NCBI GenBank assembly: GCA_038222225.1
Contig: JBBRHV010000007.1
Location: forward strand, 27 to 64,026
Direction of reading: 5' to 3'
Length of the DNA: 64,000 nt
Origin: Candidatus Omnitrophota bacterium
GTDB lineage: Bacteria; Omnitrophota; Gorgyraeia; Zapsychrales; JANLHA01
In this document: one piece after another, positions 16,870 to 43,142 of the stretch
Layout: every line of letters begins with the position of its first letter
Position numbering within the stretch: position 1 is the first letter of the stretch
Notes under the pieces: generated by a model
Seen by the model: only the letters and a program-made list of their open reading frames with translations
The model's database searches: none
Told to the model about the DNA's origin: nothing
Position numbers and translations under genes: made by a program

Positions 16870-16924
16870 GATCCATTAACCTTCATAATGACACTAAGGC
16901 ACTAAAAAAATCAAAAAGAAATAA

Positions 16925-16966
16925 AATGTGTTTCAATGTGTTTCAATGTATTTCAATGTATTTCAG
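16925..16966. repeat. Tandem 10-bp repeats TTTCAATGTR, about 4 copies. On the minus strand this is the same unit (ACATTGAAAY) as in the 27891-27970 array.
   Basis: Read directly: gtgtttcaatgtgtttcaatgtatttcaatgtatttcag. Confidence 0.8.
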
Positions 16967-16995: not shown

Positions 16996-17030
16996 TGTTC
17001 TTTGTTTCTTGTTTCTTGTTTCTTGTTTCT
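16996..17030. repeat. Tandem heptamer TTGTTTC x5.
   Basis: Read directly: ttgttctttgtttcttgtttcttgtttcttgtttc. The island is flanked by the inverted repeats CACTAAGGCA (16892-16901) and TGCCTTAGTG (17044-17053). Confidence 0.7.
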
Positions 17031-17063
17031 CTAGTGTCTCAATGCCTTAGTGCCCTACAATTT

Positions 17064-17996: not shown

Positions 17997-18928
17997 ATCA
18001 AAAGTCCTTTTTTAAGTGCTGCCTCCCAAAGACGGACCAGGCCTTCGCGCAGCACAGTCTTGGCCATCCATCCCCTCGTCTGTATCGGGCTGACCTCCAG
18101 CAATCTCTGGAAATCTTCATCCTGGATTTTTTCGTCATATTCGATCGTTCCTTCGAATCCGGAAATATCCCGGATCATTTCCGCTAAATCCCGGGTCGCA
18201 ATATCCACCCCGGATCCAATGTTGATCGGCTCCGCCTCCTCGTAGTGACGCATTAAAAACTCACAGGCACTGGCGAAATCCTCTGAGAACAAAAATTCCC
18301 TGCGGATATCAGGATTTTTTAAAACACGGACCTTCTCCCGTCGGTCAGCCGCCGCCTGAATAAAAAGCTCAACCAGATCAGACAAAAAACCACTTTGATC
18401 ATCACCCTCTTCTTTGCGCGGACCATAAATAGACGGCGCAATGGCAACCACCGCATTAAAGCGATACTGCAGACGGTAAGCCTCACACATCGCGATTCCG
18501 GCGATCTGACTGATCGCGCTGGATTGACTCTGTGGATCCAACGGTCCGGTGACAACATAATCTTCTCTCATCGGCTGAGGGCATTGGCGGGGATACACAT
18601 CAGAGTCCGCCAGATAAAGCAGCTTTTTTGAGCCTAAACGATAGGCCGCATCTATGATCTGCGTCTGGCTCATCATGTTCATAAGAAAATATTCTGCCGG
18701 ACGATGCGGCGGCTTAGCCGTGTCTTGAGAAGCCAACGAATCCAAGATCACGTACTCCGGCTGATAATCCTTAAAAAAATCATCCACGGCCTGGCGGTTT
18801 AACGTGTCCAGATCAACCGCCCCTGCCGTTAACAGGCGCCGATAACCTTCGGCTTCGAAATATTCAATGATCGCCTGTTCTTTAGCCTCCTGATGTCCGG
18901 CAATGAAAATAGTGGCTTCATGATCCAT
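17993..18928 (-). CDS. GDP-L-fucose synthase (Fcl/GMER) homologue with a degenerate active site. It lacks the GxxGxxG, the Ser/Tyr/Lys triad and the Cys. It is a probable pseudoenzyme or non-catalytic partner.
   Basis: It aligns with E. coli Fcl along its whole length (IFIAGH, AVDDFF, FLMNMMSQTQIIDAA, QPMRED, QIAGIAMCEAYRLQY, NIGSGVDIATRDLAEMI, RLLEVSPIQTRGW). However GHRGMVGSA is replaced by GHQEAKEQA, LGSSC by LADSD, and PYAIAK by SSAISQ. It has a 4-nt overlap with the downstream SDR gene. Confidence 0.7.
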   Translation of the reverse strand: MDHEATIFIAGHQEAKEQAIIEYFEAEGYRRLLTAGAVDLDTLNRQAVDDFFKDYQPEYVILDSLASQDTAKPPHRPAEYFLMNMMSQTQIIDAAYRLGSKKLLYLADSDVYPRQCPQPMREDYVVTGPLDPQSQSSAISQIAGIAMCEAYRLQYRFNAVVAIAPSIYGPRKEEGDDQSGFLSDLVELFIQAAADRREKVRVLKNPDIRREFLFSEDFASACEFLMRHYEEAEPINIGSGVDIATRDLAEMIRDISGFEGTIEYDEKIQDEDFQRLLEVSPIQTRGWMAKTVLREGLVRLWEAALKKGLLI

Positions 18929-26784: not shown

Positions 26785-27717
26785 TTATTTGACCTGCTGT
26801 TCTTGGTTAACCAGAATTTGAGCCCCGATAATACCGGCGTCATCACCCAGACGGGCGCGTACGATCCGGACCATGTTCCCCTGAACGGCCATGGCCCGCG
26901 CCTTAATGGCCCGTCGAACCGCCGGAAATAAAAATTGATGGCTGCGCGATACGCCGCCGCCGATCACAATATGTGTTGGATTCAGCAGATTGACCATGCC
27001 GATCAAGCCGGTCCCGATCAGCTCACCCGCTTCTTGCCAAAACCGCAGCGCCTGAGCATCCCCGGATTTCGCCAATCGAAAAACATCTTCCAGGGCTATG
27101 CCTTTACGTTTGAAGATCGCTTCGGCACGCTTTTGCAGCCGGGTGTTGCCGACAAACGTTTCAAAGCAGGCAAACGATCCGCAGTTGCATTTGGGCCCTT
27201 TGAAATTGATCGGCATATGACCGAGCTCACCGGCGGCAAACCCCGCACCCCGATACAGTTTCCCATCCAGGATGAGTCCGGCGCCGACACCTGTTCCCAA
27301 AGTCATCCCCACCATGTTGCGGCATCCATGCCCTGCGCCAAACCCCCACTCACCAAGAGTGATGAGATTGACATCATTCTCCAGGTACACCGGCAAACCT
27401 AAACACTTTTCCAGTTTTGCTTTTAAGGGAACATTACGCCAGCCCGGAATATTCGGAAGGAAAATAACGATACCGTCTTTGGGATTGATCAAACCCGGCA
27501 ACCCAATACCAACCCCTTGAACTTGTTTCTTAGAAATTCCGCTTTCTGAAATAAGCGTTAAGACCGCCTCAGCCAATACCTTGATCAGCCGCTGCTTATC
27601 AGAACCATAAGTTTTTGTGATTAAACGGGTTCGGTGAAAAACCGAGCCCTTTGGATCAATGAGACCGATCTTGATATTTGTCCCGCCAACATCCACGCCT
27701 ACGGTATATTTTTTCAT
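26785..27717 (-). CDS. ROK-family sugar kinase (glucokinase/N-acetylhexosamine kinase) with a zinc motif.
   Basis: VGVDVGGTNIK and the ROK motif GHMPINFKGPKCNCGSFACFE are present. Confidence 0.85.
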   Translation of the reverse strand: MKKYTVGVDVGGTNIKIGLIDPKGSVFHRTRLITKTYGSDKQRLIKVLAEAVLTLISESGISKKQVQGVGIGLPGLINPKDGIVIFLPNIPGWRNVPLKAKLEKCLGLPVYLENDVNLITLGEWGFGAGHGCRNMVGMTLGTGVGAGLILDGKLYRGAGFAAGELGHMPINFKGPKCNCGSFACFETFVGNTRLQKRAEAIFKRKGIALEDVFRLAKSGDAQALRFWQEAGELIGTGLIGMVNLLNPTHIVIGGGVSRSHQFLFPAVRRAIKARAMAVQGNMVRIVRARLGDDAGIIGAQILVNQEQQVK

Positions 27718-27890
27718 AGTTTTAATATTTATATTGATATTAAAGAAGCGGAATTATTCTAATGGAAAAATGGTTTTGTTGCAAGACGGAATTCAACTAA
27801 TCACGTGCAGCGAGTAGCGTACAATGCGACCAAAGGAAGCCCTGAATTTGGCGAAGGATGGAGTAAAAAATCCTGAAAAATATCGAAAAA

Positions 27891-27970
27891 CACATTGAAA
27901 TACATTAAAACATGATTGAAATATATTGAAATATATTGAAATACATTGAAACACATTGAAATATATTGAG
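27891..27970. repeat. Eight perfectly phased 10-bp tandem repeats, consensus AYAYATTGAA (one helical turn per unit). An inverted copy TTTCAATGTGTTTCC lies at 28130-28144, and TTGTTTC-like and CTTCTTCC repeats lie at 28116-28186.
   Basis: Read directly: cacattgaaa tacattaaaa catgattgaa atatattgaa atatattgaa atacattgaa acacattgaa atatattgag. Confidence 0.85.
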
Positions 27971-28206
27971 ATAAGTAGAAACCGGAGGAAAATGGGGACT
28001 GAACAAATTATTGCGTGGTCGGTTTTTTATTCTTGATGTGCTTATTTCACTTCAAAATATTTCAAATTTTTTTATTTGTCGGCTTTGATTTTCCTGAAAT
28101 TTGTGTATTGTTTTTTTTGTTTCCGTCTATTTCAATGTGTTTCCATTTGTTTCATCCATCACGCTTCTTCCTTCTTCCTTCTTGCATCCCGTGTCCCATT
28201 TACGTT

Positions 28207-29223
28207 TTATTCCTCGTATACCCCAAACGCGCAGACCCGATTGCGGCCGAGCTTTTTGGCCCGGTACAATGCCCAGTCGGATTTATCGATCAATTCAGCC
28301 ATTTTCCTGCCGTCATTGGGAAATGCAGTTGAGCCAACGCTTACGGTCACATGAATATCCTTGTCATAGGCATGAATCATACGGACCTCAACCGCAGCTC
28401 GCACACGTTCGGCAACATAATGAGCCCCTTCACGGTTGGTGTCCGGTAAAATCACCGAAAATTCCTCCCCGCCGAAACGCCCCACAATATCGATTTCGCG
28501 CACGGTTTCCTTAATGACCTTCGCCACCTCTCTCAACACATGGTCCCCGGCCAAATGCCCATAATTGTCGTTGATACCTTTAAAATGATCAATATCCAGC
28601 ATTAAAAACGCCAGATTGACATTCTTGGCCTTGGCGCGGTTCATTTCCTCGGCAAACCGGTCCATCAAATAACGCCGGGTAAACACTTGTGTTAAGCCGT
28701 CGGTGATCGCGAGCCGTTCGATTTCCTTGTACAAATGAATGCGTCGAAGGGCAAGGGCGAACTGATTGGTCAAGATCTCAATCGTATCTTTCTCCTCCTC
28801 CCGTCCTCCCTTAATGGCCAAATATCCCAGAAGCTCCTTCTTCCCCTTAACCGGAAAAATAAAATGATCCGAGGCCTTCTTCAGGGCGGCCAATTCATTG
28901 GATAACGGGCTCAGCAGAAGACAATACTCATATTGGGCCTGATCACGCAGCCGCTGCTGAAAAATTTGAAAGGCCTCATCATCATCAGATGTTTTTGTGA
29001 TCTCTTTGGTGATGTCATAAAGCGTATAGACTCTGCTGACCTTGTCCTCCAGTTCCTGCCTTTCTTTCAGAATACTGTCTTCCTGCAGGATATATTTCTG
29101 AAAATGCTCCTTGGCTTTTAAAACCTCCAGTTCGGAGTCTTCCCGGCGGAGAATGACATAGTAGCCCATCGCAACGGCTGTTGCCACGCAGTACAGCAAA
29201 AGTAAAATACCGGCCACGATCAT
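28207..29223 (-). CDS. Membrane-anchored coiled-coil GGDEF diguanylate cyclase (GGEEF active site, RxxD I-site present).
   Basis: The motif REIDIVGRFGGEEF is present. The N-terminus is hydrophobic. Confidence 0.85.
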   Translation of the reverse strand: MIVAGILLLLYCVATAVAMGYYVILRREDSELEVLKAKEHFQKYILQEDSILKERQELEDKVSRVYTLYDITKEITKTSDDDEAFQIFQQRLRDQAQYEYCLLLSPLSNELAALKKASDHFIFPVKGKKELLGYLAIKGGREEEKDTIEILTNQFALALRRIHLYKEIERLAITDGLTQVFTRRYLMDRFAEEMNRAKAKNVNLAFLMLDIDHFKGINDNYGHLAGDHVLREVAKVIKETVREIDIVGRFGGEEFSVILPDTNREGAHYVAERVRAAVEVRMIHAYDKDIHVTVSVGSTAFPNDGRKMAELIDKSDWALYRAKKLGRNRVCAFGVYEE

Positions 29224-35570: not shown

Positions 35571-35630
35571 GTATTTTTTAAAGGCACTGGGACACTAGTT
35601 GATTTTTAGTGTCATCGTGCCGTAGTGTCT

Positions 35631-42614: not shown

Positions 42615-42893
42615 TTACCCCTTGTCTTCTATCGTCAAAATAATCTTAATTCCGCTCAAATTCACTCTCTTTTCACCCATCAAATAATGAACATAATTTA
42701 AAACCTTAATCTGTTCCTTCGAATAACACCGGGTACATTTGCCAATCCGTTTCGGTGAAACAATGCCCATATCATCCAGTTTCCGCAACGTCCAAATCGG
42801 AATATCCACGATGCGACTCACAACCCCGATAATAAAAACCGGTTCATTTGGGTCCAGCTCAATATCAAATTGTTCAACATCAAAGTCTTCCAT
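42615..42893 (-). CDS. MerR-family HTH regulator, HspR-like.
   Basis: PVFIIGVVSRIVDIPIWTLRKLDDMGIVSPKR ... VNLSGIKIIL resembles HspR (VNLAGVKRIL). The start is taken at Met 42893 with an AGGAG RBS 7 nt upstream. Confidence 0.65.
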   Translation of the reverse strand: MEDFDVEQFDIELDPNEPVFIIGVVSRIVDIPIWTLRKLDDMGIVSPKRIGKCTRCYSKEQIKVLNYVHYLMGEKRVNLSGIKIILTIEDKG

Positions 42894-43142
42894 AAGCAAT
42901 CTCCTGAGCTCACTAGAAATATAACACAAGCTAACTATAATGTCAAGGTTATCTACCAAAAATATTTAGATAAGCTAACTATTAGACATTTGCGCCCCGC
43001 GTTCCTTACATTCTTTTAAGCCATCTCGCCCGCCTCCTTCTTAAGCGCTGCCTTCTCTAAAATAATAACGACAAGTCACGGAATGCATTCCCGAATATTT
43101 ATATTGATAAAATCTTATATTCAGATATAACTAAGATAAATA

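Follow-up and report, generated by a model that had tools for sequence, protein, structure and literature searches.

Tandem decamers upstream of a ROK-LptD operon in Candidatus Omnitrophota: a shared regulator site or an STRR-like intergenic palindrome?

Does an array of 10-bp direct repeats in front of surface-glycan genes mark the binding site of a shared regulator, or does it belong to a class of intergenic repeat elements? The question is raised by repeat island 2, the 489-bp spacer (27718-28206) that, as the original prediction had it, separates the stop codon of a GGDEF gene from the ATG of a ROK gene. The window, that is, the whole 64-kb stretch of DNA that was analyzed, makes up nearly all of a ~64.6-kb contig from a metagenome-assembled genome (MAG) of Candidatus Omnitrophota, and the ROK and radical-SAM homologs that bear source names are all from Omnitrophota/Omnitrophica. 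Nearly all genes of the window are on the minus strand, which is the sense strand in what follows, and a second set of repeats, island 1, lies between an epimerase gene and a radical-SAM gene. With somewhat more belief than doubt, we favor the hypothesis that island 2 is a lineage-specific, slippage-generated intergenic repeat palindrome that resembles the STRR elements of cyanobacteria, and not a conserved regulator array of the glycan operon.

The arrays of islands 2 and 1

The main array of island 2 is a tandem of TTGAAAYAYA units for which Tandem Repeats Finder (TRF) reports a period of 10, 8.5 copies, 81% matches, 2% indels and a score of 100 (Table 1). The decamer searches covered the 64-kb window, in which there are nine exact matches to the unit: six in island 2 (starts 27895, 27916, 27926, 27936, 27946 and 27956), three in island 1 and zero elsewhere. 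Decamers with one mismatch outside the islands number 25, against 17.6 ± 3.7 expected for the whole window, and the 20-mer dimer, sought with up to three mismatches, has 12 matches in the window, all of them inside three arrays (0.06 expected), with no further dimer sites in the other spacers. The array had been described as eight perfectly phased units. It is real, but only five of the eight units match AYAYATTGAA exactly and one is 11 bp long (ACATGATTGAA in the register of that description, TTAAAACATGA in the TTGAAAYAYA register), at which the phasing slips by one base; the exact 10-bp phasing claimed over 80 bp thus holds over ~60 bp. The tract is heterogeneous, with four unit variants, and its edges grade into degenerate copies (CTGAAAAATA, TCGAAAAACACA and TTGAGATAAG).

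An inverted copy of the unit had been placed at 28130-28144, and it is indeed present there (TTTCAATGTGTTTCC) as part of an inverted repeat of 38-42 nt that is 76-79% complementary to the main array and lies 142-164 nt from it. The surrounding partner array is covered by inverted repeats I1-I6 (25-42 nt, 76-84% complementary), TRF finds 2.5 copies at 28130-28154, and a segment of 166 bp is enclosed by a 16-nt perfect inverted repeat, made up of GAAACACATTGAAATA at 27947-27962 and the complementary TATTTCAATGTGTTTC at 28129-28144. Of the microrepeats that had been noticed in the spacer, a heptamer array is confirmed (Table 1). Read on the sense strand, the 5' arm (28206 to 28100) consists of GAAGGAA x3, three or four TGAAAYANNN units and A-runs, and is A-rich; the 3' arm (27975 to 27860) consists of the 8-unit array followed by phased T-runs, and is T-rich. 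In a fold-back alignment scored against shuffles that preserve the composition of each half, island 2 has a z of 7.6.

The island 1 unit does match that of island 2 on the opposite strand, with 97% identity over 35 nt, and the flanks of the two islands have no homology. Island 1 is bracketed by 8-mer arms (17058-17032 and 16904-16890), its 130-nt interior carries GAAACAA x4.1 and the decamer x4.1, and its RNA fold of -30.6 kcal/mol (z -2.26) is closed by the 8-mer stem. Island 1 is a tandem-array hairpin with an expanded interior. Both islands had been placed at promoter-proximal boundaries of the glycan operon. This fails for island 1, which sits inside an operon and not at its head, at a junction that measures 27 bp in the relative L123 (loci outside the window are given by L numbers).

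Palindromes of tandem arrays in related genomes

Several lines of evidence suggest that the two islands are members of a wider class. The architecture of a palindrome built of tandem arrays recurs at four spacer positions in five genomes, and the sequence and length of the unit turn over rapidly: units of 7, 8 and 10 nt are found in spacers of the window, L001, L126, L131 and L132. Same-strand genes flank all eight instances, and the copy number is between 3.6 and 4.8 in 12 of the 16 arrays. At the island 1 junction, between the epimerase and radical-SAM genes, L132 has a clean 126-bp hairpin with 8-mer arms (GRCACTRA x4.1 and TAGTGYCN x3.6; -42.7 kcal/mol, z -3.66), and L131 has a 248-bp hairpin with 7-mer arms (GACACAN x3.9 and TGTGTCN x3.9; -68.9 kcal/mol, z -6.2) whose interior is A-rich and then T-rich. 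L131 carries a further pair, (CGTGAAAA)x5 and (TTTTCACG)x5, at 18440-18740, upstream of an MGDG-synthase gene. In the dnaK-dnaJ spacer, hairpins of inverted 8-mer arrays are present in the window (35571-35630), in L001 (2229-2317) and in L126 (2126-2209), with z of -5.6, -6.8 and -6.0. The unit differs in L126 (GNNCCCAA), and thus the arms of the dnaK-dnaJ hairpin co-vary; from its sequence, this hairpin probably serves as a conserved stem between the two cistrons and tunes the ratio of dnaK to dnaJ. Two spacers of the window, as well as L001 and L132, contain TAGTGYC 8-mers, and the 8-mer arms that close island 1 also form the clean hairpins of L132 and of dnaK-dnaJ in L001.

The compact hairpins are very stable, with z from -3.7 to -6.8. 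Fold-back z is 12.7 and 13.1 for the L131 spacers and 7.3 for L132, and ~0 for four control spacers of the window. Additionally, a skew on the sense strand, A-rich in the 5' half and T-rich in the 3' half, is found in all seven repeat-bearing spacers except the ROK spacer of L126, which has neither arrays nor skew.

Evidence on the origin of such arrays comes from the GGDEF-ROK spacer of L001, which begins with TAAAGCG x4.1 (L001 9674-9702), an array that starts with the GGDEF stop codon itself and for which RNAfold predicts pairing to an incomplete inverse copy immediately 5' of the promoter. The equivalent place in the window, 28209-28196, has only two degenerate copies (TAAAACG TAAATGG), and the L001 array, judged by its sequence, is a clear lineage-specific slippage expansion. 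A slipped-strand origin of the decamer array is plausible as well, since adjacent units are identical, the edges are degenerate and the L001 heptamer array expanded from its own stop codon.

In this clade, then, spacers between co-directional genes repeatedly hold inverted pairs of short tandem arrays, with units of 7, 8 or 10 nt typically in about four copies, and what lies between the paired arrays is, on the sense strand, rich in A in the first half and rich in T in the second. We propose that island 2 is one such element. Its decamer array, with 8.5 copies, would be the slippage-expanded T-rich arm and the array at 28117-28159 the shorter partner, whereas the island 1 array would belong to the other, A-rich arm of a second element; the "opposite orientation" of the two sets of decamers would then be seen because the arrays sit on opposite palindrome arms. 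Replication slippage or template switching would grow and shrink the arrays. Where functional, the element would, to judge from its position and from published analogs, form a stem-loop in read-through or intercistronic transcripts, which could protect or process 3' ends and uncouple the GGDEF transcript from the ROK operon, a role of the kind suggested for the STRR hairpins of cyanobacteria and demonstrated for the hairpin of the Haemophilus hmw repeat. By analogy, any function is probably exerted at the transcript level, as an intercistronic stem.

Several observations weigh against this proposal. The RNA fold of island 2 is no better than that of shuffled sequences on either strand (sense -52 kcal/mol, z -1.10; antisense -61.1 kcal/mol, z -1.57), and island 1 is marginal by both measures (fold z -2.26, fold-back z 1.9). 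The compact hairpins fold equally well on both strands, which does not distinguish action at the RNA level from action at the DNA level. That two unrelated spacers carry one and the same decamer (97% over 35 nt) calls for either its transfer from locus to locus or selection on the motif, and the latter would favor a binding site. Finally, the sample is small, as the analysis covered only ~85 kb of related Omnitrophota sequence and, from the source genome, this contig. Because island 2 folds weakly, it may be an overgrown, decaying copy of the element with little or no function.

Rival readings of the array

The best of the alternatives, which we nonetheless consider unlikely, is that the arrays are functionless slippage products in a dispensable, AT-rich spacer and that the palindrome is the relic of an older hairpin element. 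The comparison of ROK-upstream spacers counts in favor of the repeat palindrome as well as of this possibility. The gene order dnaK...GGDEF-GGDEF-ROK-LptD is kept in L001, L123, L124/L125 and L126; a GGDEF gene is directly upstream of ROK in four relatives (L001, L123, L124 and L126), and a different gene precedes it in L002/L003/L127. The spacer measures 323 bp in L001, 463 in L126, 113 in L124/L125, 93 in L123 and 127 in L002/L003/L127. Upstream of the promoter these spacers (93-463 bp) are not alignable, and the island 2 spacer aligns with that of L001 over its last ~120 bp only. The decamer array is absent from all seven related loci, all of which keep the core promoter (CTTGCA/CA, 17 nt, TAGAAT/TACAAT) together with an AT-rich leader (alignment A2). 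Thus the array is kept in none of these relatives, and spacer length ranges from 93 to 489 bp with the promoter intact throughout, both of which would be expected of debris, as would the weak folding of island 2 and the degeneracy of its units and edges. On the other hand, compact structured relatives of the element hold the same positions (dnaK-dnaJ and epimerase-radical SAM) despite the change of unit, which suggests constraint on the class, and the identical decamer is present in two spacers. The nearest ROK homolog is 85% identical, the exact ROK protein of the window matched no record, and no conspecific contig was found in searchable collections; a metagenome scan with a 23-mer from the conserved leader returned one distant relative, which is without the array.

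A shared regulator of surface-glycan expression, which the original prediction had inferred from the position of the two islands, is a reading that we hold to be improbable. In its most specific form, a winged-helix protein of the OmpR/PhoB/ToxR type, bound head-to-tail, or a ribbon-helix-helix (RHH) oligomer would occupy the decamers cooperatively and modulate the ROK-LptD-glycan operon in this lineage only. Operators of the OmpR/PhoB/ToxR type and RHH heptad arrays, such as those of the omega repressor and the ParR centromeres, are contiguous 7-11 bp repeats, direct or inverted. The decamers have some of these properties: they are contiguous direct repeats of ~10 bp with a conserved ATTGAAA core and variation mainly at the two Y positions, and one unit occurs in three arrays and in both orientations. 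TGAAA-N5-TGAAA would also fit the ToxR-type TNAAA-N5-TNAAA, and GAAACA presumably resembles an OmpR half-site. However, in contrast to the known operators, the array has no cognate gene in the window, is not conserved in relatives, is promoter-distal, is not plasmid-borne and does not adjoin partition or replication genes. Pfam scans of open reading frames (ORFs) of at least 150 aa (minus four short, overlapping ones) and of selected smaller ORFs found no response regulator, RHH, Rep/Par or recombinase/invertase gene in the window. The DNA-binding genes that these scans did find are limited to hrcA, a MerR-like ORF, an ECF sigma/anti-sigma pair and nrdR, and neither island adjoins any of them. 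Furthermore, the other spacers of the window are without dimer sites, and island 1 is intra-operonic, at the junction that is so short in L123.

The position of the array relative to the promoter argues in the same direction. The predicted core promoter of the ROK-LptD operon has TTGCAA (27784-27779) and TAGAAT (27761-27756) separated by 17 nt; it is outside and downstream of the repeat element. Relative to the predicted start site, the array occupies -139 to -224, and the orthologous promoters have no array. Since the core promoter is kept and the array absent in the relatives, the promoter would work there without it. The shared-regulator claim is therefore not sustained: the array is absent from seven related loci, the window has no regulator gene for it and there are no extra sites. 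This removes a tempting but unsupported annotation of the decamers as a shared regulator site of a surface-glycan operon. A better candidate for a shared operator at the heads of glycan genes, as far as the sequence goes, is a 16-nt exact match, AATATTTATATTGATA, found in the conserved ROK leader (27724-27739), as part of its near-palindrome (Table 1), and at 43094-43109 (0 expected by chance), which places the second copy 35-50 nt before a gene for a GT2 glycosyltransferase (43143, plus strand).

The array had also been considered as a helically phased bending element. In a wedge-model path calculation, which used Bolshoy-Trifonov angles and in which a phased A6 control has an end-to-end ratio of 0.367, the decamer array is predicted to be straight (0.969 at 27890-27990; 0.972 for synthetic TTGAAATACA x12). 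Here, predicted curvature is confined to the neighboring A5-6 tracts that separate the array from the ROK promoter: 27820-27920 has a ratio of 0.752, which ranks second lowest among the 100-bp stretches of the window (mean 0.957, sd 0.027). In L001 and L126, the orthologous spacers are among the most curved 2-4% of their own loci.

That the array is a phase-variable contingency repeat, in which gain or loss of 10-bp units alters expression of downstream surface-glycan genes within populations, is very improbable in our estimate. It is a tandem repeat upstream of LPS/glycan genes with signs of recent unit duplication, and the hmw heptamer repeats provide a precedent (PMC12721329). Of the original slipped-strand, phase-variable reading, the origin by slippage is plausible, as set out above, but several points count against the variable function: heterogeneity of the units (81% identity) makes slippage less frequent, the array is upstream of the promoter and outside the -35/-10 spacer, the leader and any ORF, and steps of 10 bp leave the helical face unchanged.

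An invertible promoter or a miniature inverted-repeat transposable element (MITE), in which a recombinase would flip the 166-bp segment between the 16-nt perfect inverted repeats or the segment would have arrived as a mobile element, is hardly credible: although inverted repeats surround a short segment with weak promoter-like sites inside and the unit is present at a second locus, genes for an invertase or recombinase are absent from the window, the promoter-like matches inside the segment reach only 9/12, the conserved ROK promoter is outside it, no target-site duplication is seen, the island flanks share no homology and the Y1 transposase gene of the window (7788-8525) has unrelated terminal repeats.

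Known repeat families, feature map and gene setting

The repeat palindrome that we favor for island 2 is most similar to the cyanobacterial STRR elements, 7-bp repeats that form intergenic hairpins, as between hupS and hupL and upstream of hoxW, and for which a role in transcript stability or translational coupling has been proposed (PMC2670836). In both cases short units are in tandem in non-coding DNA between co-directional genes, the unit is dispersed to several loci and the arrays, here those of the compact elements, can be paired into hairpins. Here, however, the host is Omnitrophota and not a heterocyst-forming cyanobacterium, units of 8 and 10 nt occur besides 7, the sequences are unrelated to STRR1-3, and island 2 is long, degenerate and weakly folding. 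Because the phylum and the units differ, with a unit length of 10 nt, the Omnitrophota element is an analog of STRR and not a member by descent. STRR-like tandem-array palindromes, hitherto documented mainly in cyanobacteria and a few proteobacteria, are thereby documented as filling the intercistronic spacers of an uncultured phylum; the 10-nt units, the inverted arrays and the Omnitrophota host are new here. If the compact hairpins of dnaK-dnaJ and epimerase-radical SAM prove functional, they would offer a simple handle on post-transcriptional tuning within operons of Omnitrophota.

Other families share single traits with these arrays. GGGNATC heptamers of Xanthomonas and Nostoc are over-represented between aligned ORFs near stop and start codons and prefer about four units (PMC4692102), a preference also seen here (12 of 16 arrays at 3.6-4.8 copies). 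Whereas GGGNATC is G-rich and forms G-quadruplexes, the present arrays are without G-tracts and in inverted pairs, and a four-unit preference in the absence of G-tracts would question the G-quadruplex explanation given for the same preference elsewhere. In hmw1A of Haemophilus influenzae, (ATCTTTC)n is one arm of a long hairpin in the 5' untranslated region (UTR) that is cut by RNase III (PMC12721329); the likeness lies in a short tandem repeat that serves as one hairpin arm against a dissimilar, purine-rich partner, and it supplies a worked mechanism for post-transcriptional action. The hmw repeats, though, are perfect, sit in the 5' UTR, 3' of the promoter, and differ in number from cell to cell, whereas the decamer array is upstream of a conserved promoter. 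TAACTGA direct repeats, with 2-6 or more copies in many spacers of Beggiatoaceae, Cyanobacteria and Bacteroidetes (PMC4679880), are likewise one specific short unit that recurs in unrelated phyla, as TTGAAATACA/TTGAAATAGA arrays do in Bacteroidota, Limnohabitans and others; TAACTGA is another unit, of another length, and its sets are within a few nucleotides of start codons and rarely inverted. With REP/BIME-RAYT systems the TAGTGYC 8-mer hairpins that bracket island 1 have in common that they are dispersed intergenic palindromes shared by several genomes, but their arms are tandem arrays, the 23-nt repeats of the Y1 gene are unrelated to them and the decamer array is not a compact palindrome.

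A literature search for the exact decamer unit returned nothing relevant. A scan of species-representative genomes with TTGAAANNNATTGAAANNNATTGAAA found at least 119 loci, a sample that is biased by the query and uninformative on the source genome; no Omnitrophota are among the matches listed. The commonest variable triplets among these matches are TAC (13), AAA (10), TAG (10) and TAA (8), arrays reach 30-46 units in a Bacteroidales MAG and a Deltaproteobacteria MAG, and ~90% of those listed are intergenic, with no orientation bias and no common neighbors. The matches in species-representative genomes suggest that decamers with an ATTGAAA core recur as tandem-repeat units of AT-rich spacers. 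A viral scan gave 3 matches.

Arrays with this core (TTGAAATACA, TTGAAATAGA and others) were seen in Bacteroidota, Limnohabitans, Deltaproteobacteria, Chlorobiota and other groups (L004-L122), for example at L017 6872-7171, L048 3912-4061, L058 4741-5200, L095 and L113. Several adjoin terminator-like hairpins or contig ends, and some are inside dispersed repeats with shared flanks (L114/L120/L121; L082/L111/L116; L005/L028/L059/L074).

One could imagine that Omnitrophota have a family of self-renewing tandem-array hairpins, with a plastic unit size (7/8/10 nt) and a set-point of about four units per arm, that is kept by a trans-acting factor of its own, which might be an enzyme like the Y1 transposases or an oligomeric protein that binds RNA or DNA, and that the TTGAAATA(C/G)A decamer arrays of Bacteroidota, Limnohabitans and other phyla are due to horizontal spread or to a factor in common, and not to coincidence. 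This is a speculation that we rate as quite improbable.

Table 1. Positions of the repeats and neighboring features in the window
Feature	Position	Strand	Basis or remark
Main decamer array, TTGAAAYAYA (UUUCAAURUR-type on the sense/minus strand)	27888..27973	+	TRF; repeat family D1
Degenerate array edge with phased A5-6 tracts (AAAAAATCCTGAAAAATATCGAAAAACAC)	27864..27894	+	sequence; part predicted curved
Inverted partner array, 3-4 degenerate units (TTGTTTCCGTC TATTTCAATG TGTTTCCATT TGTTTCA)	28117..28159	+	inverted repeats I1-I6; TRF
Further partial inverted copy (TTCAAAATATTTCAAATTTTTTTA)	28051..28074	+	inverted repeats I7-I11, I14 (I14 = 15 nt, 93%)
Heptamer array CTTCTTC x2.9 (sense strand GAAGGAA)	28164..28183	+	TRF; just downstream of GGDEF stop
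Island 1 decamer array AATGTRTTTC x4.1 (sense TGAAAYACAT, in A-rich 5' half)	16925..16965	+	TRF
Island 1 heptamer array TTGTTTC x4.1 (sense GAAACAA)	17002..17030	+	TRF
3' arm of island 1 closing stem, 8-mers (TAGTGCCT TAGTGTC)	16890..16904	-	
5' arm of island 1 closing stem; sense reads GGCACTAA GGCATTGA GACACTAG	17032..17058	+	
Predicted sigma-70-type core promoter, ROK-LptD operon	27756..27784	-	promoter scan; conservation in 7 genomes
Leader near-palindrome TTAATAT-N8-ATATTAA, between -10 hexamer and ATG	27722..27743	-	conserved in relatives
GGDEF gene upstream of island 2	28207-29223	-	
ROK gene downstream of island 2	26785-27717	-	

In transcription order (right to left), island 2 is preceded by hrcA-grpE-dnaK-dnaJ, a Zn-ribbon gene, DUF1015, accD, an ABC ATPase and two GGDEF genes. 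It is followed by ROK, LptD, two UDP-sugar dehydrogenases, epimerases, E1 alpha/beta and two epimerases, then by island 1, and island 1 by a B12-radical-SAM gene, a GHMP kinase, a nucleotidyltransferase, aminotransferases and glycosyltransferases. The island 2 spacer has a GC content of 32%, against 48.6% window-wide. Scans of the whole window with the Rfam gathering thresholds and for tRNAs found nothing, no intrinsic terminator was found within 27400-28500, and promoter-like sites in the same interval are at chance level in the promoter scan.

Other candidates for the spacer were discarded. A Rho-utilization site, for which periodic UC dimers on the sense strand were considered, was dropped on account of the low C content and the opposite polarity in island 1; a replication origin was rejected, as the GC skew runs monotonically and the genes show no change of orientation; and a tiny ORF at ~27990-28034 preceded by a Shine-Dalgarno motif (MGTEQIIAWSVFYS) and a 105-aa antisense ORF were judged spurious.

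Elsewhere in the window, an IS200-like Y1 transposase ORF (7788-8525, minus strand, 245 aa) is flanked by 23-nt inverted repeats at 7763-7785 and 8683-8705 that are 91% complementary and delimit an element of 7763-8705. The element could be of the RAYT or the IS200/IS605 type, and its terminal repeats are unrelated to the island repeats. A small MerR-family ORF (HspR-like; 42615-42959, minus strand) adjoins clpB, downstream of hrcA-grpE-dnaK-dnaJ. At the left end of the window (2-7569, minus strand), stop-free stretches at 2-3931 and 4586-6679 lie 3' of an ORF at 6682-7569 and run off the window start. These stretches look like one giant gene, of more than 2,500 aa if continuous, within which the plus-strand ORF 3932-4585 is probably spurious. 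In the product of the giant gene, an SpvB domain close to the N-terminus precedes RHS repeats and many fibronectin-III domains.

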